The notes under the pieces: model-generated
Seen by the model: the letters and a program-made list of their open reading frames with translations, nothing else
What the model was told of the DNA's origin: nothing
The model's database searches: none
Program-made: the position numbers and the translations under genes
From: a phage
Reading direction: 5' to 3' (one strand)
Sequence record: PZ496581.1
Length of the DNA: 64,000 nt
Part shown: in pieces, positions 5,567 to 60,469 of the stretch
Position numbering within the stretch: the stretch's first letter is position 1
How the letters are laid out: each line of letters starts with the position of its first letter

Positions 5567-5598
5567 GCATTATACTCTGCTCTCAAGAGTTTGTACAA
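5567..5598 (-). promoter_or_regulatory. sigma70-type early promoter (ndd)
   Basis: TTGTAC - 18 nt - TATAAT; -10 inside inverted repeat GAGAGC...GCTCTC. Confidence 0.55.
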
Positions 5599-6315: not shown

Positions 6316-6342
6316 GATGTTATCCTCTTTTAGATAGGACTA

Positions 6343-6371
6343 CTATATCATAGTCCTACTTAGTTGTAAAC
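6343..6371 (-). promoter_or_regulatory. sigma70-type early promoter in stem-loop
   Basis: GTTTAC - 18 nt - TATAGT; flanked by TAGGACTA...TAGTCCTA. Confidence 0.5.
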
Positions 6372-15001: not shown

Positions 15002-15016
15002 AGTTGTTGTACATCA
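14983..15016 (-). promoter_or_regulatory. sigma70-type early promoter in stem-loop
   Basis: TGTACA-like -35, TACTAT -10; GGTCTAT...ATAGACC inverted repeat. Confidence 0.45.
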
Positions 15017-15538
15017 TTTTAGCAAAATAAAATCAACTTGTTCTGCCAATGAACGTCTGAACATTGATTGACAACTTCCGAGTATGAAATCAGGTGCTTC
15101 ATAGACCGCGATGTAGTATCCTTTAGCTTTCAAGAGTTCAACATCCACCTGGTCATCAAACCATGCATAAACCGCGTCAACACTTTCAAATCCAAAATAG
15201 AACCCTTGAGCCCAATCTTCACTCAATTCAAATGTGTGCTCAATTCTATAGTATCTTAAGATATTTTGTTCAAGGAGTTTGTCTTCATTTACTGTAGGAC
15301 GATTAGGGACGTTATAGTTGTCGCCGTGATGGTAGAAATTACCTGAGATTATTCCATGTTTATCAAGGAACTCCCATGTTTCTTCAGAGTTGTCGGTGCC
15401 CGACCAACCGTATGGTGAGCGAGGTTCTTTATTCCAAGAGGTTTCCCAAATTCTGACGGCTTTACCGTCTTCGATAGCAATTCCTGGTAATGATTCACGT
15501 TGAGTACAAAAACTACGTTCTACGCGGTAAACTAACAT
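15014..15538 (-). CDS. hypothetical protein
   Basis: 174 aa ORF with early promoter upstream. Confidence 0.5.
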   Translation of the reverse strand: MLVYRVERSFCTQRESLPGIAIEDGKAVRIWETSWNKEPRSPYGWSGTDNSEETWEFLDKHGIISGNFYHHGDNYNVPNRPTVNEDKLLEQNILRYYRIEHTFELSEDWAQGFYFGFESVDAVYAWFDDQVDVELLKAKGYYIAVYEAPDFILGSCQSMFRRSLAEQVDFILLK

Positions 15539-15562
15539 ATTATTCTCCTCTGGTTGATATGG

Positions 15563-15593
15563 TTATAATACCAAAACCAGAGGAGAAGTAAAC
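15563..15593 (-). promoter_or_regulatory. sigma70-type early promoter in stem-loop
   Basis: GTTTAC - 17 nt - TATTAT; CTCCTCTGGTT...AACCAGAGGAG. Confidence 0.55.
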
Positions 15594-15597
15594 AACT

Positions 15598-16017
15598 TTA
15601 TGCGAAAGCAGCTGGGCTATATTTTTTAATTTGGAATTCAGGAACTACCATGAACTGTCCAGCGAAAACGATGTTATAAAGCTTAACACCATCTTCTACC
15701 CAACGGTCGCTAATAAATCCAGCGATTTGCTTAGTTTTCCACGGTGTTCCATCAGTTGCCGCAGCAATAGTGAATTCATGGTCTTTTTCAACAGAAACTG
15801 ATCTGCATAGTCCCCATTTGAACGCTTTTTCTTCTGGTTCAATGAATTGGCTTGAGACATAACCAATGTTACCATCAGCGTCACGAACTTTAACTTCGTT
15901 ACGTCCAAAAACCGGATCACTCACAGAAAGAACTTCAACCAACTTCCCGGCAACTTTAGAGCGAGAAGCAACGGATACATATACATAATCACCTGTAGAG
16001 AGATTTACAATATTCAT
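15598..16017 (-). CDS. hypothetical protein, tandem paralog A
   Basis: 139 aa; shares SRSKxAGKLVEV, FKWxLC, GFISDxWVEDGxKLYNIVF with adjacent ORF. Confidence 0.5.
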   Translation of the reverse strand: MNIVNLSTGDYVYVSVASRSKVAGKLVEVLSVSDPVFGRNEVKVRDADGNIGYVSSQFIEPEEKAFKWGLCRSVSVEKDHEFTIAAATDGTPWKTKQIAGFISDRWVEDGVKLYNIVFAGQFMVVPEFQIKKYSPAAFA

Positions 16018-16026
16018 AATAATTCC

Positions 16027-16491
16027 TTAAGCTTTACGAGGAGACACATAGCGAGTGATTTCAGATTCTTTAACAACTCGGAAGTCACCTAAGAATACGA
16101 TATTGTATAACTTTTCACCATCTTCAACCCATTGGTCACTAATGAAGCCACACATAGTATCAGTTTTGCTTGGATAACCGTATTCGTCGATGTAATCAAA
16201 TTCTTTATCGGTTATAAATTCAACGCCTTTGCAAAGGGCCCATTTGAACTGTGTAGTAGGCTCAACGATATCGCTTGAAGCAAAGTGGGCACTTACACGA
16301 GTTTCCAAAAATTTAGGACTTACGTAAGCGTACTGAGTTTCAGTTTTTCCAGAACTAGGAATGATTCGAACTTTAACTTCTTTAATACGGCCCATGCCAT
16401 TAGTACGAAGTCCTACTACTTCAACCAGCTTTCCTGCAGCTTTAGAACGAGACGCTGTCGATACACGTTTAATTTCACCAATATTAATCAT
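16027..16491 (-). CDS. hypothetical protein, tandem paralog B
   Basis: 154 aa; paralog of 15598..16017. Confidence 0.5.
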   Translation of the reverse strand: MINIGEIKRVSTASRSKAAGKLVEVVGLRTNGMGRIKEVKVRIIPSSGKTETQYAYVSPKFLETRVSAHFASSDIVEPTTQFKWALCKGVEFITDKEFDYIDEYGYPSKTDTMCGFISDQWVEDGEKLYNIVFLGDFRVVKESEITRYVSPRKA

Positions 16492-16520
16492 ATTTTTTTC
16501 TCTCTTTGTTTAAGATAGAT

Positions 16521-16552
16521 TCATTATACTCCAACCATCCTTGGTTGTAAAC
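16521..16552 (-). promoter_or_regulatory. sigma70-type early promoter, repeated cassette copy 1
   Basis: GTTTAC - 18 nt - TATAAT; ttcattatactccaaccatccttggttgtaaac also at ~57981 and ~59001. Confidence 0.6.
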
Positions 16553-16557
16553 TGGTT

Positions 16558-17235
16558 TTATCGCTGTTTTACACTTAACGGGTCAGGATTCTCAGGGACA
16601 TCTTCAAGGCCAAGCGCATAACGCTGAGCATATTTTAACATCAAAATATCTTTAGCACAATCATGAATACTATCATGGGCAACGAATCCTTTTAGCGTAC
16701 CCATCGGTAATGGACACATACTTAATCCTCGTGTCAAAGAGTAAGCTTCGATTGCCGTACGAATATCACGTTGAGCCCAGAATTTAACAGGTTCTAATTT
16801 ATCAGTATCAATATCTGGTTCAAGAACACCTTCATCACGATAGAGGTCACGAATCAAATCGACCAAGATCGGGAAGTCAAAGCTCATACCACGGCACCAC
16901 ATCTGTGATTTCCATTGGTCAACTTTATTAGCTCGGCAATAGTCTAAAAAGATTTTAATGCCTTCAAGCGTAGTGACATCGTCTTCAGACGGAGCCAAGT
17001 TTTTACGCGCTTCAACCGATTGTTCTTTCCACCATTTCATAGTTGATTTAGCGAAAACTCGCTTCCCTTTCTGAGAAGCTAAATTAAATTTAATTCGCTT
17101 ACCTCGTTGAACAAGTTCTTCAAATGATTCAACAACTTCAGGGTCGGAATTATATGCAATAACCGCAAGGTCAATAACAGCCGCTTTTGATGTATTGCCG
17201 AATGTTTCAAAATCTATAATAACATCAGTGCTCAT
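16558..17235 (-). CDS. dexA: exonuclease A (DEDD 3'-5' exonuclease)
   Basis: 225 aa; IIDFETFG exo motif; T4 DexA size and position next to dda. Confidence 0.85.
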   Translation of the reverse strand: MSTDVIIDFETFGNTSKAAVIDLAVIAYNSDPEVVESFEELVQRGKRIKFNLASQKGKRVFAKSTMKWWKEQSVEARKNLAPSEDDVTTLEGIKIFLDYCRANKVDQWKSQMWCRGMSFDFPILVDLIRDLYRDEGVLEPDIDTDKLEPVKFWAQRDIRTAIEAYSLTRGLSMCPLPMGTLKGFVAHDSIHDCAKDILMLKYAQRYALGLEDVPENPDPLSVKQR

Positions 17236-26609: not shown

Positions 26610-26642
26610 GACTACTATACTATAGTCCATCTATAATGTAAA
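26610..26642 (-). promoter_or_regulatory. sigma70-type early promoter in stem-loop (sp)
   Basis: GTTTAC - 18 nt - TATAGT; GGACTACTATA...TATAGTCC. Confidence 0.5.
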
Positions 26643-28128: not shown

Positions 28129-28161
28129 GACTATAATAACACAACTACTGGAGAAGTAAAC
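28129..28161 (-). promoter_or_regulatory. sigma70-type early promoter in stem-loop
   Basis: GTTTAC - 17 nt - TATTAT; 12-bp inverted repeat CTCCAGTAGTTG / CAACTACTGGAG. Confidence 0.55.
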
Positions 28162-28536
28162 TTAAAAACGTAATTTAGATATATCTGCGTTGATTTCGTT
28201 TTGGTTTGCATCGTATGCAATTAAACGAACCGCTTTAGATGGGTCATTCAATGCATAGAAATGATGGAACATTGCTCGAACGATATCACCATTTACGAGT
28301 TCTACCTGGATAGGAGAACCTTTTTCGAGTTGGAAATGTTCATAAGCTTTGATGGTTCGTAGATAATCAAGTTTTTGATTTCCGGCTCCAACTATTTGTA
28401 CGATACGTTTGCCCATGTTTTCCATACGAGATACAATAGTTTTAGGAGCAAGAATAACGTAGGTTGCCAGTGGAGAAACTACTTCAACAGTTGTGTTTTC
28501 GGTGATTGCAGTAAAAATTGCTTGAGACATATTCAT
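28162..28536 (-). CDS. hypothetical protein
   Basis: 124 aa ORF with early promoter. Confidence 0.5.
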   Translation of the reverse strand: MNMSQAIFTAITENTTVEVVSPLATYVILAPKTIVSRMENMGKRIVQIVGAGNQKLDYLRTIKAYEHFQLEKGSPIQVELVNGDIVRAMFHHFYALNDPSKAVRLIAYDANQNEINADISKLRF

Positions 28537-37600: not shown

Positions 37601-38236
37601 TCATTGTTCGCCTCGTAACATGGCACCTAGTGCACCGCCTGGATGGAACTTAAGGAAATCATTAGAGGTAAATCCACGTTCAGACGAAAGGTTGATAGCA
37701 AACGTATCGATAAGTGCTAACAACAATGTAGTGGACATCGTCGGAGCTAAAGAGTTCTCGTCAACTTCTACCGCGATACCGGTGCAGAACGTATAATCAA
37801 AAAGAGCTTCGTATTCTTGTGGAATGTCAGGGTTACAATGTAACAGAATCTGTTTAACCTGAGGACGAATCATACGAAGATGTTTAGCAACACCTATCAT
37901 TTCTTCAGTCTTACCAGAACGACTGATGTGAACTAATACATCATTAGGTGCAATAAATCCTGCGTCACCATGAGAATAATGCCCGGTGTTCAAATACATG
38001 CTAGGAATACCTAGTGAAGCAAAAGTCTCGGAAGCTTTAGTTGCGATATTAGCATTCTTACCAACACCTGTAATAATTACCCGGCTTTCATAATTACTAA
38101 GTCCAGGGCGTCGAAGAGTTTCTAGAATAGCATTATAACGAGCAGGGTTTTGACTAATTACTTTAGCCATAGTGGCAAGAGATGAAGCTTGTTTTACGAT
38201 TGCGTCAATAGCGATAGTAATAGGAGTAGTTTTCAT
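37601..38236 (-). CDS. SIS-domain sugar-phosphate isomerase (arabinose-5-phosphate isomerase-like)
   Basis: 211 aa; VIITGVGKN, HISRSGKTEE, APTMSTT, FHPGGALG align with KdsD/GutQ SIS domain as recalled; no CBS domains. Confidence 0.75.
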   Translation of the reverse strand: MKTTPITIAIDAIVKQASSLATMAKVISQNPARYNAILETLRRPGLSNYESRVIITGVGKNANIATKASETFASLGIPSMYLNTGHYSHGDAGFIAPNDVLVHISRSGKTEEMIGVAKHLRMIRPQVKQILLHCNPDIPQEYEALFDYTFCTGIAVEVDENSLAPTMSTTLLLALIDTFAINLSSERGFTSNDFLKFHPGGALGAMLRGEQ

Positions 38237-38276
38237 ATTTCTCTCATTTAATTAGTTGGCCGTCCTTGGCATTATA

Positions 38277-40988
38277 TCAAAAATCAAACATATCGAACAG
38301 AGATGCTTTCTTCTCGTAATCGAGTTTAGCTGCTGATGTGAATCCTTCAAGTGGTTTAATAAATGTCTTCTCAAGGAGAACAGTGTAGTCCATCCAATGA
38401 AGTACATCGTCTTTAATTAAATCTGTGATTTCAGTACCAGAAGGCCATGCGATACATTTATCACCGAATGGGTTTCCTTCACGTAAAGGCAGAACATATA
38501 CTTTTTCACCTTCTACAACTTGCGGTGCATCGATATTACCTTTGATAGCCCGGTTATACGTCAGAATTCCACGAATATGGAACGGGCATTTGGGACCAGG
38601 GAATCCACCGACGTCATATTTAGCAATGTTATTCGCAGAAGATACCGACGCGATGCTAATATAATTCAACTGACGGAATTCTTTTTCAAACTCTTTAAAA
38701 TATTCTTGTAATGATTCTTCACCTTCCTGAAGCATACGACGAATACATTCCTTAAGAGCTTTCTGTACTGCTTTAGGAGTCGAAGATTTCTGTGTTTCGA
38801 GACCCATGATTTTAAGCTTAGGTTCAGCGTATCTGGTTCCTTCCATATCCCATACATTCAAGGCATAACGTTTCTTACCTGTCCAAAATCCGCCAATACC
38901 TTTAGAACCAAGCGGAGGCCCAGCGATAGCTTCTCGGTCCATGAACATTAAGTGTTGTTTATTGTTCATGTATTCACACATTTCACGGAAACCTCTATCA
39001 ATAGCTGGTTCCATACGTTCACGTGCAAACTTATCTAAGAAGTCTACCCAATGGTTGGTATCACGGAATTTAGATTCACCAACCTTATCGATAATTTTAT
39101 CGGCAGATACGTAAATAGAGTCTGTATCACCATAAAGAACGAAAGCTTCACCTTCTGTACCACAAACTTCATTCAGATATTCATTAACTTTACGTTCAAT
39201 CCACTGTAAAGCCATTTGTCCGAATGTTGTGATTGCAGTAGCATTACGCAAATCATAATAACGGAACCAAACGTTTCCAAGTGCACCATAAAGTGAGTTG
39301 ATGAGCAATTTACGGTTAATTTGTGCAGTCATACCTGCAACTTCAGTACGTTGAGCTCTAAACAACATTTCATTAAGAGATTTAGCAGACAACTTTTTAA
39401 TCTTTTCTTTAATCTCATCGCTGAAGTCGAAACGATAATCAACATCTAATGGTTCGTCAACAGAAAGATTAGGATTATGCAATGCCTCTTTAATTATTTC
39501 ACCATTACGTTGAGCTGCAAGCATGTAACCTTTATGTTCTTTACGTTGATTAAAGACCTTAGTGATTTCAGTTGGAACTACACCATCACGGTCTTTATAA
39601 TACATCATGCCGTTAGGAGAACAACTGTACACATCTGAAGGACGTTCAGCGATTGCGTTAATATAATCATGCAATGGAGCTACTTTAAACGTTCCTGCTA
39701 TTGTTTCCGGGCTAATATTCACTTGGCGAATAATACTTGGATACAGAGATGTAAGGTCGAAACTCATTACATATTTGTATCGATTTGGAATAGGTTCCTT
39801 AACAAAAGCGCCAGGATAAGGTTGAACCGGGTGAGAACGACCTTGTGGAATCACCTTGTTCTGTTCTTTAAGGCTATTAAAAATAATAGCATCCCATGTT
39901 TTAATTGGGCCAAACACAGATTGAATCTGTATCTTAGCATAATAACCCATGTCCAAACTCAAGTTGATGAACTGACGCTTAGCATCAATTTGCAATACAC
40001 GATACACATCGATAATGTTATAAGAAATATATCGTTGGTGATTGCTTTCACGAAGTTTAGAAATAGGGCCGTCATATTTCAGTTTACCAACGTTCAATTC
40101 AAATTCTGAAATGTAATCCAGAGAATACGATGGTTGATTGGTAAAAGAGAATTTTTTGTAAAGGTCAATGTAATCAAGAACAGAGATACCGAACAATGTA
40201 ATGATTTCACGAGAACCATACATGTTTTCGATAACTTTAACACGAGTTTTACGATGTGGTGATAAACGTTTCGCAGTAGATTCGCCAAAAATATTCTTGA
40301 TTCGGTTATACACATATGGAATATCGAATGACTCAACGTTCCATCCAGTCAAAATGACAGGAGTTTTCTGTTGCCAGAAGTTGAGATATTCCATCAACAA
40401 TTCTTTTTCGTTATCGAACGGTATATAAATGATTTTATCGATAATTTCGGATGGAACTTCATCACCACCTTGTTCTTGAAGCTTAGCCGCAATTTCGATA
40501 GACCATTCTTCTACATTACCATACGGAGAATTCAATAGATCAAATACGTAGAACCTGTCGTCAATTGAGTCATAATGGGTGATAGCATCAATCGGATGTT
40601 TTGCTTGTGATGGCTCAGGGAACCCATCCGGAGATGTTACTTCGATGTCGAAGTTAGCCACACGAATTTTTGTATGGTCGTATTTGATTTCATAGTTATA
40701 AGTGTCAGACAAATACGCCAATTTGAAATCGTCCATACCAAGTGCTTCAAGTCCGATATCTTCCATGCGTTTAATCCATTGGGAGGCATCACGCATATTA
40801 GCGAACAACTTACGAGTACACGGCTTACCGTAGATATCGAAATATTTCGTAGCCTGACTTTCTGGACAATGAGCAAACAGTGATGGTTTATATTCTACTT
40901 CACGAGTACGTTCACGGCCATTAGAATCGATGTAACGTTCAAAAATTGAATCACCAATCTGTTCAACCGTTAAGTAAAATTCTTTCAT
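38277..40988 (-). CDS. 43: DNA polymerase (family B)
   Basis: 903 aa; exo FDIE, polymerase YGDTDS; MKEFYLTVEQ start. Confidence 0.95.
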   Translation of the reverse strand: MKEFYLTVEQIGDSIFERYIDSNGRERTREVEYKPSLFAHCPESQATKYFDIYGKPCTRKLFANMRDASQWIKRMEDIGLEALGMDDFKLAYLSDTYNYEIKYDHTKIRVANFDIEVTSPDGFPEPSQAKHPIDAITHYDSIDDRFYVFDLLNSPYGNVEEWSIEIAAKLQEQGGDEVPSEIIDKIIYIPFDNEKELLMEYLNFWQQKTPVILTGWNVESFDIPYVYNRIKNIFGESTAKRLSPHRKTRVKVIENMYGSREIITLFGISVLDYIDLYKKFSFTNQPSYSLDYISEFELNVGKLKYDGPISKLRESNHQRYISYNIIDVYRVLQIDAKRQFINLSLDMGYYAKIQIQSVFGPIKTWDAIIFNSLKEQNKVIPQGRSHPVQPYPGAFVKEPIPNRYKYVMSFDLTSLYPSIIRQVNISPETIAGTFKVAPLHDYINAIAERPSDVYSCSPNGMMYYKDRDGVVPTEITKVFNQRKEHKGYMLAAQRNGEIIKEALHNPNLSVDEPLDVDYRFDFSDEIKEKIKKLSAKSLNEMLFRAQRTEVAGMTAQINRKLLINSLYGALGNVWFRYYDLRNATAITTFGQMALQWIERKVNEYLNEVCGTEGEAFVLYGDTDSIYVSADKIIDKVGESKFRDTNHWVDFLDKFARERMEPAIDRGFREMCEYMNNKQHLMFMDREAIAGPPLGSKGIGGFWTGKKRYALNVWDMEGTRYAEPKLKIMGLETQKSSTPKAVQKALKECIRRMLQEGEESLQEYFKEFEKEFRQLNYISIASVSSANNIAKYDVGGFPGPKCPFHIRGILTYNRAIKGNIDAPQVVEGEKVYVLPLREGNPFGDKCIAWPSGTEITDLIKDDVLHWMDYTVLLEKTFIKPLEGFTSAAKLDYEKKASLFDMFDF

Positions 40989-49740: not shown

Positions 49741-50117
49741 TTTACCGCCTTAACAATTTTCAGGTCAACGAATTTTTTCTTACGTTGATTTTTCATACGA
49801 CGGATAGTCTTTTCAGAGATTTCATGTTTCTGATAAGCTTTAGATTCAACACCAAATGCAGCAACGTCAAATTCAGAAAGAATATATTGTACTAGAATTT
49901 CACGAATAGAATTACGTCCAATTTTCTGGTCGTGTTTTTGCATGATTTCATAAAGACGGAATTCCCACGCGTCAAGAACTTGAGGAGTAACAATATTGCC
50001 GGATTCCAGAAGAGCAACAACTTTATCGAAAGCGAAAGAATTAACTACGTTTTTGATTTTAGTAGACATATTATTTTCCTCGGTTATTTTATTATCCAAC
50101 GAGAGAATTATACTCAT
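49737..50117 (-). CDS. hypothetical protein
   Basis: 126 aa ORF with early promoter. Confidence 0.45.
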   Translation of the reverse strand: MSIILSLDNKITEENNMSTKIKNVVNSFAFDKVVALLESGNIVTPQVLDAWEFRLYEIMQKHDQKIGRNSIREILVQYILSEFDVAAFGVESKAYQKHEISEKTIRRMKNQRKKKFVDLKIVKAVK

Positions 50118-50138
50118 CTCTCAAGAGTTTGTATACTA
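50105..50138 (-). promoter_or_regulatory. sigma70-type early promoter, related to ndd promoter
   Basis: GTATAC -35, TATAAT -10 inside GAGAGA...TCTCTC; shares ctctcaagagtttgta with 5581..5596. Confidence 0.5.
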
Positions 50139-50863: not shown

Positions 50864-51071
50864 CTTTTTTCAACTTACGAACTTCTTTGCGGAGTTGTCG
50901 ATTCATTTCATTCTTGACTTCAGAATCAACGCCTTTCATACGTTTCCATTTATCTGAGCGGAAAATGTTTTCAACCATGTCTTTGTGGCTAACACCGTCA
51001 GGAGCTTTACGTTTACCAAAATAGTCATAATCGCGAACTTTCAAATCTTTACGACGATACGTTTTACCCAT
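50778..51071 (-). CDS. hypothetical basic protein
   Basis: Trimmed to MGKTYRRKDL... Confidence 0.4.
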   Translation of the reverse strand: MGKTYRRKDLKVRDYDYFGKRKAPDGVSHKDMVENIFRSDKWKRMKGVDSEVKNEMNRQLRKEVRKLKKDVYSKEDYDYNTSHTEAKRKANECYRYS

Positions 51072-56698: not shown

Positions 56699-57003
56699 TA
56701 TAATGTTCTCTCAAATTTGTGGAAGCATTTACGGCATTTCAATTTCAAGTTATCAGTGGTCCAGTTAACCAGTTGGACTTGGATAGTTCCACATTCTGGG
56801 CATGGATGTTTTGCTGCCGATTTGGCAGCATTTTCACGTCGTTCAACCATTTTCATTATTTCGTTCCATGCTGGAGGAACGAACTCTTCTTCACTATGAA
56901 TTTTATCTCGCTGAACAAATTCAATCTTTGAACTATCATCAATAAACTTAACTAAGCCATGATTAGTGTTCATATCAATATCCTCTAAAAGACGTAGTTT
57001 CAT
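56698..57003 (-). CDS. hypothetical zinc-ribbon protein
   Basis: 101 aa; CPECG...CRKC. Confidence 0.45.
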   Translation of the reverse strand: MKLRLLEDIDMNTNHGLVKFIDDSSKIEFVQRDKIHSEEEFVPPAWNEIMKMVERRENAAKSAAKHPCPECGTIQVQLVNWTTDNLKLKCRKCFHKFERTL

Positions 57004-57953
57004 TATAAAACCTCAATGGCATTTCGTAAACCATCCGCTTTTGCATTAAGAGCTTTTAATGATTTAGTTTGTTCTGCAATCTGGGCTTCGACTTCTTTCA
57101 GACGAGATTTGAGATATTCGCGTTCTTCTCTTAAGTTATCAACTTTTTCTACTTTAGGTTCTTTAATAGGCTTAGGTTTATACGTATTAGGGTTCTTCAG
57201 CTTAATTTGAATACGAGAACTGAATAACATTGAACCGTTATCTTCGGTTTCACTATGCATTTCTACCACGTCCATGATTCTTAACATCATGCGAAGTTTA
57301 TAAGACAGCGAACGAATGGTTTTATTGTGCTTCTTAATTTCTTCAGCTTTCATGGTGCCGAGATTACGTGAGTAGTAATAAGGAACCTGAATATCAATTG
57401 ATAATGATGCGGTACCATTACCAGTTGGTTTGAATACTGCAGTAACCCAATCTTTAACATGAACTTTATTTGTACGATCATCGCCACCTGTGAATAATTT
57501 ACAAGAATGTTTAAAAAGCATATTCACTTGGTTATTGAATTCACAAGCAAATTTATCAGCAAATTTAGTTTCAGGAATGGTAGTTAACCAATCAGCCAAA
57601 TGAGTCTTTTTAACATCATTAACAATAGTGAATTCAACCAAATCGGTTTTAGATGTCACAGATTTAATAAAGCTCGGCTTCATAAAGTTTTTAATGTTAT
57701 CGCGAGCTACAGTAGAAGATAATAAACGAGAACGTTTGAACCATTGAAGCAACGTCCCTAACGAATGAGAATACGCATTTTGAGTATCTTTACAGATATG
57801 ATTTTCTTGGCCTATGTATGTACCAAAATCGCGAAGAATACCACTTACTACATCTCGGTGTGGAACATCAAATCCTAATGAACCAGAAGCACGTTGGGCA
57901 TGAACGTTAGCGATAAGACCTGCAAAGTATTCAATGTAATGTGAACGTGTCAT
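57003..57953 (-). CDS. hypothetical protein with C-terminal coiled coil
   Basis: 316 aa; driven by repeated promoter cassette. Confidence 0.5.
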   Translation of the reverse strand: MTRSHYIEYFAGLIANVHAQRASGSLGFDVPHRDVVSGILRDFGTYIGQENHICKDTQNAYSHSLGTLLQWFKRSRLLSSTVARDNIKNFMKPSFIKSVTSKTDLVEFTIVNDVKKTHLADWLTTIPETKFADKFACEFNNQVNMLFKHSCKLFTGGDDRTNKVHVKDWVTAVFKPTGNGTASLSIDIQVPYYYSRNLGTMKAEEIKKHNKTIRSLSYKLRMMLRIMDVVEMHSETEDNGSMLFSSRIQIKLKNPNTYKPKPIKEPKVEKVDNLREEREYLKSRLKEVEAQIAEQTKSLKALNAKADGLRNAIEVL

Positions 57954-57979
57954 AATATTTTCCTCTCGTTAAGATAAAT

Positions 57980-58011
57980 TCATTATACTCCAACCATCCT
58001 TGGTTGTAAAC
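57980..58011 (-). promoter_or_regulatory. sigma70-type early promoter, repeated cassette copy 2
   Basis: Same ~35-nt sequence as 16521..16552. Confidence 0.6.
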
Positions 58012-58015
58012 TATT

Positions 58016-58975
58016 TTATGATTTTAATGCATTCATTGCGTTAAAAAGTTTAGAATACTGCAACTGGAGATTCGTTACAACACTTTGAGCATCACGAAGC
58101 TTAGCTTGTGCTTTGTCAAGTTCAACGGATAGTTGGTCTACAGTGGCCTTGATTTGATTGTAATGGTAATCTTCGGCCGGAAGAAGGTCATTAGAAACAT
58201 TTAGTTTTACTGCAGACAGTTTGCACACATTTGGCAAACCTTTAAACATTGATTTACCCGAAGTAGAATATGCACCTAGAACTTCAGCATTGCCAGTTGG
58301 GGTTGCAGTAATTGACGCTTCGAACGTTGCATTTTCCTTTTTAAGATTTTGATAGTATTCAGAGTCTTTGTGCCACCATGACGCAGGAACCTTTTTACCA
58401 ATAGATACACGAGCCTGGATAGCGATATGGCCCTTATTCTTGATAGGGTCGATAATATTAAGCTCACGAGAATAAATTGCTTTAATCTGGTGGATATTAT
58501 CACCTAAAACTTCCAACGCTTGGTGGAATACACGAGCAACGTTATCATTCTTAGGTTTATACGTAAGAGTGAACTCGTTCTCACTGATAACCATGATTTC
58601 CAACTTATCGTAAGTATATTTCAAATGTTTCATGTTAATTGCTTGAGGACGAATACGAGAAGCAATGGCCATCAGATTGTTAAGGTTATTCCGGAACTGC
58701 TTAGCGAAATATTGTCCTTCACCGCCAATACAAAAATTACGAAGTTTCTGTTTGGCTAATAAACGGCTGAACTCACCATTTTTAATGAACTCTTTAACGG
58801 GTGTGTTAGTAACGCATTCAAATTGAGTAAACTTACGAGAATTAATCCCATAATATGAACAGATTTCCTCAATCTCTTCAGGAGTCTTTACAGGCATACG
58901 GATAGGATTAGGACCTGGGGTATATGCGTTCGAGGTAAATTCTTTGATAAGTTCTCTACGTGTAATAGAAGCCAT
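58016..58975 (-). CDS. hypothetical protein with C-terminal coiled coil
   Basis: 319 aa; driven by repeated promoter cassette. Confidence 0.5.
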   Translation of the reverse strand: MASITRRELIKEFTSNAYTPGPNPIRMPVKTPEEIEEICSYYGINSRKFTQFECVTNTPVKEFIKNGEFSRLLAKQKLRNFCIGGEGQYFAKQFRNNLNNLMAIASRIRPQAINMKHLKYTYDKLEIMVISENEFTLTYKPKNDNVARVFHQALEVLGDNIHQIKAIYSRELNIIDPIKNKGHIAIQARVSIGKKVPASWWHKDSEYYQNLKKENATFEASITATPTGNAEVLGAYSTSGKSMFKGLPNVCKLSAVKLNVSNDLLPAEDYHYNQIKATVDQLSVELDKAQAKLRDAQSVVTNLQLQYSKLFNAMNALKS

Positions 58976-58999
58976 TTTGTGTTCCTCATGTTGAAAAAT

Positions 59000-59031
59000 T
59001 TATTATACTCCAACCATCCTTGGTTGTACAT
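59000..59031 (-). promoter_or_regulatory. sigma70-type early promoter, repeated cassette copy 3
   Basis: Same cassette with ATGTAC -35 variant. Confidence 0.55.
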
Positions 59032-59101
59032 CATTCCTTAAGAAGTTTTACTACTTGAATAAGATTAGCTCGTTCTGTTTTATTTTTACCATTTAAGCCT
59101 G

Positions 59102-59395
59102 CTAATCGTGAGATTTCATCGTCAGAACGTTAAGTTTATTCAGCGCGCTGAAGATTCCATCAGCCATTGATTTTCCATAACCTTTACACGCTTTAATAAG
59201 TGCTCGCGGCAGATTAGTATAGATTTCAGACGGCATATGAAAATCAAATTTACTAGTCAGTAATTGATGAACTTGGATAGCAATTTGCTCATAATTAAGT
59301 GCTCTGCGATCGTTATGGTCTTTAAACCACACTTTAATCTGTGAAGCACATAAACCGTTAATTTCATGTTTTACCGCATCAGATGTAATGCTCAT
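59102..59395 (-). CDS. hypothetical protein
   Basis: 97 aa ORF. Confidence 0.45.
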   Translation of the reverse strand: MSITSDAVKHEINGLCASQIKVWFKDHNDRRALNYEQIAIQVHQLLTSKFDFHMPSEIYTNLPRALIKACKGYGKSMADGIFSALNKLNVLTMKSHD

Positions 59396-59457
59396 AACTA
59401 TTTCCTCAGATTGAATTGGAACTCAAAACCATTATAACCCGTCCTTGGGTAAAGCGT

Positions 59458-60011: not shown

Positions 60012-60041
60012 TATAATAACATAACCATAGACCTTGTAAAC
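60012..60041 (-). promoter_or_regulatory. sigma70-type early promoter in stem-loop
   Basis: GTTTAC -35, TATTAT -10; AGGTCTAT...ATAGACCT. Confidence 0.5.
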
Positions 60042-60043
60042 AG

Positions 60044-60331
60044 CTAAAAGAAACTTTTTTCGGTATTTTTTCCACTGAACCAAACAGACTTCGGTATTTT
60101 CTGTAATTTTTCAGATTTAAGTTTCTCTTCCTTCTCTTTCTTATATACATCCTTGTCGTACTGGAGCATCTCTATGGCATTCTTTTGCAAACGATCTAAG
60201 GTAATTAAGGCTTTAGTTTTTCCTTTCAAGGAAGAGTCCTGGCGAACCTCCTCGCTATATTGCATTGTAGAACTAACCATACGATGAGCATAGAGTTCGA
60301 CTGCGGCTTTAATTTTTTGCATAAAATCCAT
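60044..60331 (-). CDS. hypothetical protein
   Basis: 95 aa ORF; overlaps upstream ORF by ~105 nt. Confidence 0.4.
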   Translation of the reverse strand: MDFMQKIKAAVELYAHRMVSSTMQYSEEVRQDSSLKGKTKALITLDRLQKNAIEMLQYDKDVYKKEKEEKLKSEKLQKIPKSVWFSGKNTEKSFF

Positions 60332-60432
60332 AACATATCCTCTTTGATTTGTACATCATTATTTTTAAATATTTCTATGCCCTCAGTAGGTTCCTGGTGT
60401 CCTTCTTTGAGGTAAGCCATATGATTATTCAT
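60226..60432 (-). CDS. hypothetical protein (possibly N-terminal part of a frame-broken gene)
   Basis: 68 aa; only N-terminal ~30 aa look protein-like. Confidence 0.3.
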   Translation of the reverse strand: MNNHMAYLKEGHQEPTEGIEIFKNNDVQIKEDMLWILCKKLKPQSNSMLIVWLVLQCNIARRFARTLP

Positions 60433-60469
60433 CTTTATAGCTTTTGTTACCTCAGAACTTCCTATAAGC

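Follow-up and report, generated by a model that had tools for sequence, protein, structure and literature searches.

Dispersed predicted early-promoter cassettes with a spacer hairpin as probable recombination substrates in a T4-type Mosigvirus genome

Why should a phage genome carry almost the same short intergenic sequence in front of three genes whose products have nothing in common? This question is raised by a 33-nt repeat in the 64,000-nt stretch of phage DNA analysed here as a whole (sequence record PZ496581.1; hereafter the window), which is 97-98% identical to the Mosigvirus (RB69-like, T4-type) coliphages AV114, JM17, moskry, mobillu and NBG1 and which we assign to that genus as an RB69-like genome. 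A pattern search of the whole window at up to 3 mismatches returned 3 matches to the repeat, as compared with 0.00 expected from 100 dinucleotide-preserving shuffles. A chance repeat is thereby ruled out, and the three near-identical cassettes that an earlier note on this DNA had claimed are confirmed; the coordinates given there were 1-2 nt too high and otherwise right. Copies 1 (16520-16552) and 2 (57979-58011) are identical over the 33 nt, with 0 mismatches, and the 3 mismatches of copy 3 (58999-59031) all fall at its 'gtacat' end. The earlier note had named divergence on exact alignment as the result that would speak against a shared origin. Instead, an anchored comparison found that copies 1 and 2 agree at 44 of 45 positions, a stretch that begins 2 nt before the -35 box and ends 15 nt after the -10 box and has unrelated flanks, and copy 3 shares with both of them a 27-nt core, TACAACCAAGGATGGTTGGAGTATAAT. 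Across 178 records the cassette is present in 2-5 copies per genome, and the window holds the three copies plus two shorter relatives.

All three copies are read on the minus strand, on which the cassette sequence is GTTTACAACCAAGGATGGTTGGAGTATAATGAA. The copy 1 module (16492..16557) takes up the entire intergenic gap from the dexA stop codon to the ATG of a motB-like gene and consists of a -35 box TTTACA (16546-16551), the hairpin CAACCA/AGGA/TGGTTG (16532-16547), the tetranucleotide GGAG (16529-16532), a -10 box TATAAT (16523-16528) and the leader GAATCTATCTTAA, after which the ribosome-binding site follows. The copy 2 module (57954..58015) occupies the gap between nrdC.5 and nrdC.3, with its -35 box at 58005-58010, hairpin at 57991-58006 and -10 box at 57982-57987. 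The copy 3 module (58976..59033) lies in the gap between nrdC.6 and nrdC.5, with a -35 box TGTACA at 59025-59030, hairpin at 59011-59026 and -10 box at 59002-59007; its first cassette base is overlapped by the TGA stop codon (59031-59033) of intact nrdC.6.

The genes near the three copies, whose names follow the RB69 curation, are likewise all on the minus strand. The dexA exonuclease gene (16558..17235) lies upstream of copy 1 and the motB-like gene (16027..16491; 154 aa, Pfam PF17613) downstream of it, nrdC.3 (57003..57953; 316 aa, phrog_1435) lies downstream of copy 2, and nrdC.5 (58016..58975; 319 aa, DUF7235, PF23882) is bracketed by copies 3 and 2. As had been claimed, each copy thus precedes a different gene, here the motB-like gene, nrdC.3 or nrdC.5, and the encoded proteins are unrelated: BLASTP among nrdC.3, nrdC.5 and nrdC.6 found no pairwise similarity, none of the three resembles MotB either, and the nrdC.3, nrdC.5 and nrdC.6 proteins fall into distinct PHROG and Pfam families. 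That gene and promoter were duplicated as one unit is therefore rejected, and the repeat is better described as a discrete regulatory module than as the remnant of a duplicated gene. The motB family itself is represented on the minus strand by paralogs in tandem (15014-16491; 154 aa, 139 aa and motB.2 of 174 aa), and the number of genes in this array varies among relatives, from 3 to 4 annotated 'transcriptional regulators'.

The composition of the module is that of a sigma-70 promoter. TTTACA (copies 1 and 2) or TGTACA (copy 3) is separated by a 17-nt spacer from TATAAT, giving matches to the sigma-70 consensus of 11/12 in copies 1 and 2 and of 10/12 in copy 3, and the spacer contains the inverted repeat CAACCA-AGGA-TGGTTG. 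In the three copies a stop codon stands 0-8 nt before the -35 box, and a ribosome-binding site with an ATG follows 25-35 nt after the -10 box. The anatomy of -35 box, hairpin and -10 box that had been read from the sequence earlier is therefore borne out, on the minus strand, where the neighbouring genes lie; a plus-strand promoter was dismissed, since every gene and every ribosome-binding site here is found on the minus strand. In T4 early promoters (the 'uber' UP/-35/TGn/-10 class), an A-rich UP element accompanies GTTTAC at -36 to -31, TGn and TATAAT. Compared with this class, copies 1 and 2 carry GTTTAC and TATAAT, and copy 3 has ATGTAC. The TGn of an extended -10 box is absent, GAG preceding the -10 box, and the A-rich UP-like region is cramped, with a stop codon only 5-8 nt before the -35 box, the upstream coding sequence ending too near for a full UP element (the sequence available before the -35 box is ATAAAACCA in copy 1, ATAAAATA in copy 2 and AAGGAATGA in copy 3).

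Counterparts of these sites in RB69 were predicted as early promoters Pe:8947, Pe:8387, Pe:51019 and Pe:52042 by a profile search (Nolan et al. 2006, PMC1524935, additional file 3), in which copy 2 corresponds to Pe:51019 and copy 3 to Pe:52042. These RB69 sites are orthologous to those of the window, and the additional file gives their promoter coordinates, without reference in that part of the publication to near-identity, to a hairpin or to a link with indels. Two counterpart sites are also annotated as promoters in the NBG1 record. The window contains approximately 21 early-promoter-like sites on the minus strand, and stems of at least 6 bp are present in 8/21 of these, versus 7.6% of random 44-nt segments (p ~1e-4). 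From sequence alone, we infer that the cassettes act as promoters and that they do so early; it is then reasonable to suppose that motB, nrdC.3 and nrdC.5 would be co-regulated from their near-identical promoters.

Promoters of this kind have been described before. Promoter-early stem-loops (PeSLs) are known from phages RB49/phi1 (Arbiol et al. 2010, PMC2839356) and from T4/PST and KVP40/nt-1 (Comeau et al. 2014, PMC4122927). [quoted passage not shown] Elements of this class occur in many scattered copies, chiefly among non-essential early genes; their stem-loops terminate or attenuate transcription arriving from upstream, and promoter activity and mini-circles also belong to their definition. 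The cassette resembles PeSLs in joining a sigma-70-like early promoter to a spacer stem-loop in the interval that separates a stop codon from the next ribosome-binding site, in its promoter sequence (TTTACA-17-TATAAT in copies 1 and 2 fits the T4-group consensus, and copy 3 reads TGTACA-17-TATAAT), and in the fact that dispersed copies flank accessory genes, with hybrid elements at the indel junctions of close relatives. It differs in belonging to Mosigvirus, a genus outside the analyses of Arbiol et al. and Comeau et al., and in its stem, which is short, not G/C-rich, without a T-tract and predicted to be a poor terminator; the G/C-rich PeSLs of RB49 are effective terminators, a property that probably does not apply to the cassette of the window. 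The loop is also different, being an invariant AAGGAY in three genera, whereas the published elements are of the form G(n)-loop-C(n) or AGNA-loop-TCNT. A search of the available literature found no paper that ties PeSLs to RB69-type phages, and nothing on early transcription of nrdC.4. In T4, the sequences GTTTACTTT(A/G)CCACAAGGATGTGGTATAAT upstream of gene 60 and nrdC.4 (NC_000866, ~2415-2444 and 50930-50959) have the same architecture of -35 box, AAGGAT hairpin and -10 box and are identical at 29/30 positions although 48 kb apart; they differ from the cassette in their stem (CCAC/GTGG), in an extended -10 (TGG), in having no GGAG and in their flanking genes.

On the evidence as a whole, we consider it highly probable that what is repeated here is a T4-type PeSL cassette, consisting of an early promoter, a spacer hairpin and a shared leader. 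The cassette would thus be of a known kind in a genus for which PeSLs had not been described, and the promoters themselves had already been predicted. According to this explanation, the 55-65 nt between a stop codon and the next ribosome-binding site would pack together a strong sigma-70 early promoter, the spacer hairpin and a common leader. Host RNA polymerase would initiate approximately 7 nt after TATAAT, and motB, nrdC.3 and nrdC.5 would each receive the same early promoter.

Several further early-promoter-like sites on the minus strand are of a related appearance. At seven of these (5569-5597, 6342-6370, 26614-26642, 28133-28176, 50107-50135, 60013-60056 and 15545-15608) the -10 box is enclosed by longer palindromes of 6-12 bp, for example TAGGACTA...TAGTCCTA, GAGAGC...GCTCTC and CTCCAGTAGTTG...CAACTACTGGAG, and in many of them a TAG(A/T)CCTATCAA box stands right after the -10 box. 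These palindromic sites look like additional PeSL subfamilies.

What, then, does the hairpin contribute? It has a 6-bp stem and a 4-nt loop, with a predicted RNA fold of -6.9 kcal/mol, which does not surpass that of shuffled sequences (z = -0.4 to -1.8), and a terminator scan did not flag it, the T-tract being absent from its tail, GAGUAUAAU. An intrinsic (Rho-independent) terminator is therefore unsupported: because the hairpin is weak and without a T-tract, a role in termination is doubtful, and a classical terminator unlikely. Covariance models of Rfam, run over the whole window, gave no match at the gathering threshold; elsewhere there were chance-level matches only, with E up to 10. More can be learned from the relatives of the hairpin. 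When the pattern TAC-N5-AGGA-N6-GAGTATAAT, in which the stem is left free, was scanned against 2.9 million viral contigs, 45 matches were obtained. Those in coding sequences pair at 0-4/6 positions, and those that lie in the promoter context of T4-type phages without exception at 5-6/6, with the stems CAACCA/TGGTTG, CATCCA/TGGATG and CTTCCA/TGGAGG (the last including a sense-strand G.T pair). The CATCCA form is found in Dhakavirus at a syntenic site, upstream of an nrdC.4-like paralog.

T4 has four hairpins with an AAGGAT loop and stems of at least 4 bp, upstream of gene 60, nrdC.4, nrdC.3 and nrdC.7; each of them lies between genes, is read on the early strand and runs into a -10 box. The window has five such hairpins, including a short form before nrdC.6 and one after gene 43. 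The short form, GCTTTACCCAAGGACGGGTTATAAT (59431..59455, minus strand, upstream of nrdC.6), has the stem ACCC/GGGT, the loop AAGGAC and a -10 box TATAAT (59431-59436), and a -35 box at the proper spacing is absent. It is kept in RB69, NBG1, moskry and AV114, and the T4 and Dhakavirus version reads TTATACC-AAGGAT-GGTATAA. The fifth hairpin, GCC/GGC around an AAGGAC loop (38259..38270, minus strand), lies directly 3' of the stop codon of gene 43 (DNA polymerase) and precedes a gene of 211 aa (37601-38236); it has the loop of the cassette but no -35 box.

Selecting sequences with AAGGAY and a -10-like hexamer gave a bimodal set, in which 13 sequences have 3-7 consecutive pairs and the other 13 have 0-1. 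In the 13 distinct sequences of the paired family, which come from three genera, 95.3% of cells are paired versus 62.5 +/- 4.7% after shuffling (0/500), a percentage that is inflated, as members were told from chance matches partly by their pairing. Within this family, 4/5 pairs change on both sides (covariation score 0.73 versus 0.14), and in no slid register does pairing exceed 51%. The loop AAGGAY is invariant between eight different stems at homologous sites in Mosigvirus, Dhakavirus and T4, two G.T pairs of the family work on the sense strand only, and the hairpin is always 3' of a stop codon. Covariation thus shows base pairing that is evidently under selection, around an invariant loop. 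Since the hairpin lies upstream of the start site of its own promoter, it can be present in RNA only through read-through from upstream; a transcript reading through from dexA, for instance, would carry the hairpin of copy 1. In the PeSL explanation, the hairpin most likely acts in such read-through transcripts, where it could serve as an attenuator, as a protector of 3' ends or as a processing signal.

The last of these functions leads to the alternative that survives best, although we regard it as rather unlikely: that the element is primarily an RNA-processing module, in which the phage endoribonuclease RegB with ribosomal protein S1 would cut at the GGAG 3' of the hairpin in read-through transcripts only, leaving the downstream gene uncoupled and the upstream mRNA capped by a 3' hairpin, with promoter and processing site sharing the same bases. 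The sense-strand-only G.T pairs and the constant position after a stop codon are what would be expected of such an RNA signal, and RegB is active in RB69. The sequence GGAGUAUAAU(G/A/C) directly 3' of the stem fits positions 1-9 of the 11-nt RegB/S1 target GGAGAAUAAAA, a GGAG with an A-rich tail in early intergenic transcripts that has A or U at position 5, a pyrimidine at 7 and A at 6, 8 and 9; the corresponding bases are GGAG-U-A-U-A-A-U-(G/A/C) in the cassette and GGAGUAUAAAU in the T4 version between nrdC.4 and nrdC.3. However, positions 10-11 do not fit, the A at position 11 being among the most conserved, and the first G of GGAG is taken up by the last pair of the stem, although RegB requires its RNA target to be single-stranded. 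Furthermore, GGAG is missing from the T4 gene 60 and nrdC.4 elements and from the short variants, and most intergenic GGAG sites tested in T4 are uncut.

A broader proposal, to which we give only a small chance, is that the AAGGAY hairpin, which T4, Dhakavirus and Mosigvirus have in the nrdC cluster, at gene 60, at motB and after gene 43, is not a generic PeSL stem but a specific, conserved recognition element of the Tevenvirinae early region, for which a dedicated factor would exist that reads the fold in RNA or in single-stranded DNA. Processing of the RegB/S1 type at GGAGUAUAAU would be one example, and targeting of recombination by a structure-specific nuclease another. If this were true, some 30 nt would serve at once as promoter, as RNA signal and as recombination hotspot, by which counter-defence genes like nrdC.5 would be mobilised.

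The second property of the cassettes, apart from their promoters, is that genes come and go between them. In moskry, NBG1 and RB69, the gene motB.1 lies between dexA and motB and is flanked by two cassettes, A (GTTTACAACCAAGGATGGTTGGAGTATAAT, stem CAACCA/TGGTTG, leader CTTTCTATC...) and B (TGTACATCCAAGGATGGATGGAGTATAAT, stem CATCCA/TGGATG, leader GAATTCAA...). In the window and in AV114 motB.1 is absent, and the one cassette present has the upstream half of A and the downstream half of B, which places the motB.1 crossover within the shared TGGAGTATAAT. Because motB.1 is found in most relatives (an indirect estimate, the motB.1 and motB leaders being too alike for a 100-nt junction query), the state of the window is that of a minority and probably derived.

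The same pattern is seen at nrdC.5. Two direct repeats, copies 3 and 2, stand on either side of this gene at a distance of 1,020 bp from each other. AV114 is without nrdC.5, and its junction consists of the 3' end of nrdC.6, the ATGTAC containing the -35 sequence of copy 3, the shared core, and the leader and start codon of nrdC.3. A 100-nt query across the AV114 junction detected the junction of this precise nrdC.5 deletion in 21/156 records. Three haplotypes of nrdC.5 junction can be distinguished, an AV114 type (leader CTTT...), a JM17/p000v type (leader GAATC...) and that of ESCO47. In ESCO47 (OM386662.1, ~40760-40825), the gap between nrdC.6 and nrdC.3 holds a chimeric stem whose arms are mismatched, CAACC on the 5' side and GGATG on the 3' side, and the crossover is thereby placed in the loop.

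There is also a signature of exchange between distant copies. The dexA-side and nrdC.3 copies of RB69 have the leader CTTTCTATCTTA in common, and copies 1 and 2 of the window the leader GAAT(C/T)TATCTTAA. The leaders of distant copies therefore change together between phages, which argues for homogenisation by gene conversion over 41 kb.

Comparison of flanking gene content with relatives, as the earlier note had suggested, thus finds the motB.1 and nrdC.5 indels to be bounded by cassettes. Of its proposal that the module arose by duplication or recombination, recombination holds, two gene-sized indels starting and ending in a cassette and leaving hybrids behind; simple duplication of gene and promoter fails, the proteins being unrelated. 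Comparative genomics shows cassette identity serving, as judged from these junctions, as a substrate for recombination, with gene loss leaving a hybrid cassette. Whether a given indel was a deletion or an insertion is inferred from parsimony. Within the PeSL explanation, the 27-47 nt of identity between dispersed copies would be the substrate for the recombination machinery of the phage. Exchange between direct copies would delete the intervening gene or, in reverse, insert one, and would leave one functional hybrid cassette, so that the remaining gene would keep a promoter; exchange between distant copies would homogenise the cassettes.

Would such exchange need a site-specific nuclease? We think it quite improbable that the rearrangements are driven by breaks made when the hairpin, or a cruciform, is cut by a structure-specific or sequence-specific nuclease such as endonuclease VII or an enzyme of the homing type. 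The chimeric stem of ESCO47 places one crossover in the loop, the crossover of an RB49 mini-circle has also been mapped to the loop (Arbiol et al. 2010, PMC2839356), and the loop is invariant across genera. However, the junctions of AV114, JM17 and the window are localised only to 11-27 nt of identity and their crossovers may lie anywhere in it, which fits ordinary short-homology recombination, and extrusion of a cruciform is hardly to be expected from a stem of 6 bp.

The spacer palindrome could instead be an operator, bound by a dimeric protein of phage or host that would switch the early promoters together. [quoted passage not shown] We therefore consider this reading very unlikely. Least credible of all is a passive relic of tandem duplication of genes with their promoters, without ongoing exchange and with a functionless hairpin, which would suit the tandem nrdC.3-nrdC.8 array, where genes of similar size all have an AAGGAY hairpin promoter, and the paralogy of the motB genes, but not the dissimilarity of the nrdC.3, nrdC.5 and nrdC.6 proteins beside cassettes identical over 27-33 nt, the position of copy 1, 41 kb off and before an unrelated gene family, the concerted change of distant leaders between phages or the compensatory substitutions in the stems.

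By analogy only, PeSL cassettes may be compared with lambdoid morons and integron attC cassettes, in which accessory genes also travel with a regulatory or recombination signal of their own. Morons differ in having no flanking conserved repeats. The likeness to attC extends to its recombination site, a single strand folded into a hairpin in which unpaired bases are conserved; integrons differ in their dedicated integrase and promoterless cassettes, whereas here no integrase is implicated and the repeat itself is the promoter.

The evidence from the indel junctions for cassette-mediated gene loss is unusually clear, and it provides a natural example, in a genus much used for therapy isolates, of how accessory genes may be gained and lost without loss of regulation: since exchange takes place in a repeat that doubles as the promoter, whichever gene remains would still be expressed early. 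Mildly new is one aspect only, the combination of a conserved AAGGAY loop and co-varying stems over three genera, which shows that the stem-loop half of the cassettes is under selection of its own, a point left open in the PeSL literature. The presence or absence of nrdC.5 among phages that are otherwise 97% identical could translate into differences in host range, and if the nrdC.5 indel does affect host range, part of this variation might be predicted from a map of the cassettes. T4 nrdC.5 restores infection of cells that carry the Dsr1 defence system (PMC9391042). The nrdC.5 protein of the window is 25% identical to that of T4 over ~310 residues (E = 1e-11) and can be regarded as its diverged homolog, for which an anti-Dsr1 function is plausible. 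If that function is shared, the deletion found in 21/156 relatives would toggle a counter-defence gene.

Cassettes are not the sole route to rearrangement in this region, as is demonstrated by nrdC.6 of the window (59035-59457, minus strand; breakpoint ~59125), which carries a frameshifting internal deletion of 631 bp relative to NBG1, RB69 and moskry and is a pseudogene, an ORF of 97 aa (59102-59395) being left of the 331 aa encoded in those phages. A cassette-mediated origin of this truncation was rejected: the deletion ends are an 8-nt microhomology, two (T/G)ACGATGA-like copies, and no cassette was used. T4 recombines readily at short homology of 2-10 bp. Other differences were also observed. 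Between nrdD and gene 49, AV114 has a gene for a homing endonuclease (OR352944.1, 121348-122169) that is absent from this position in moskry and RB69, and its nrdC.7-like gene appears to be split into two short ORFs. The gap between nrdC.10 and nrdC.9 (60332-60469, minus strand) is ~140 nt in the window and much shorter in RB69, representing another small indel in surroundings that are hyperplastic.
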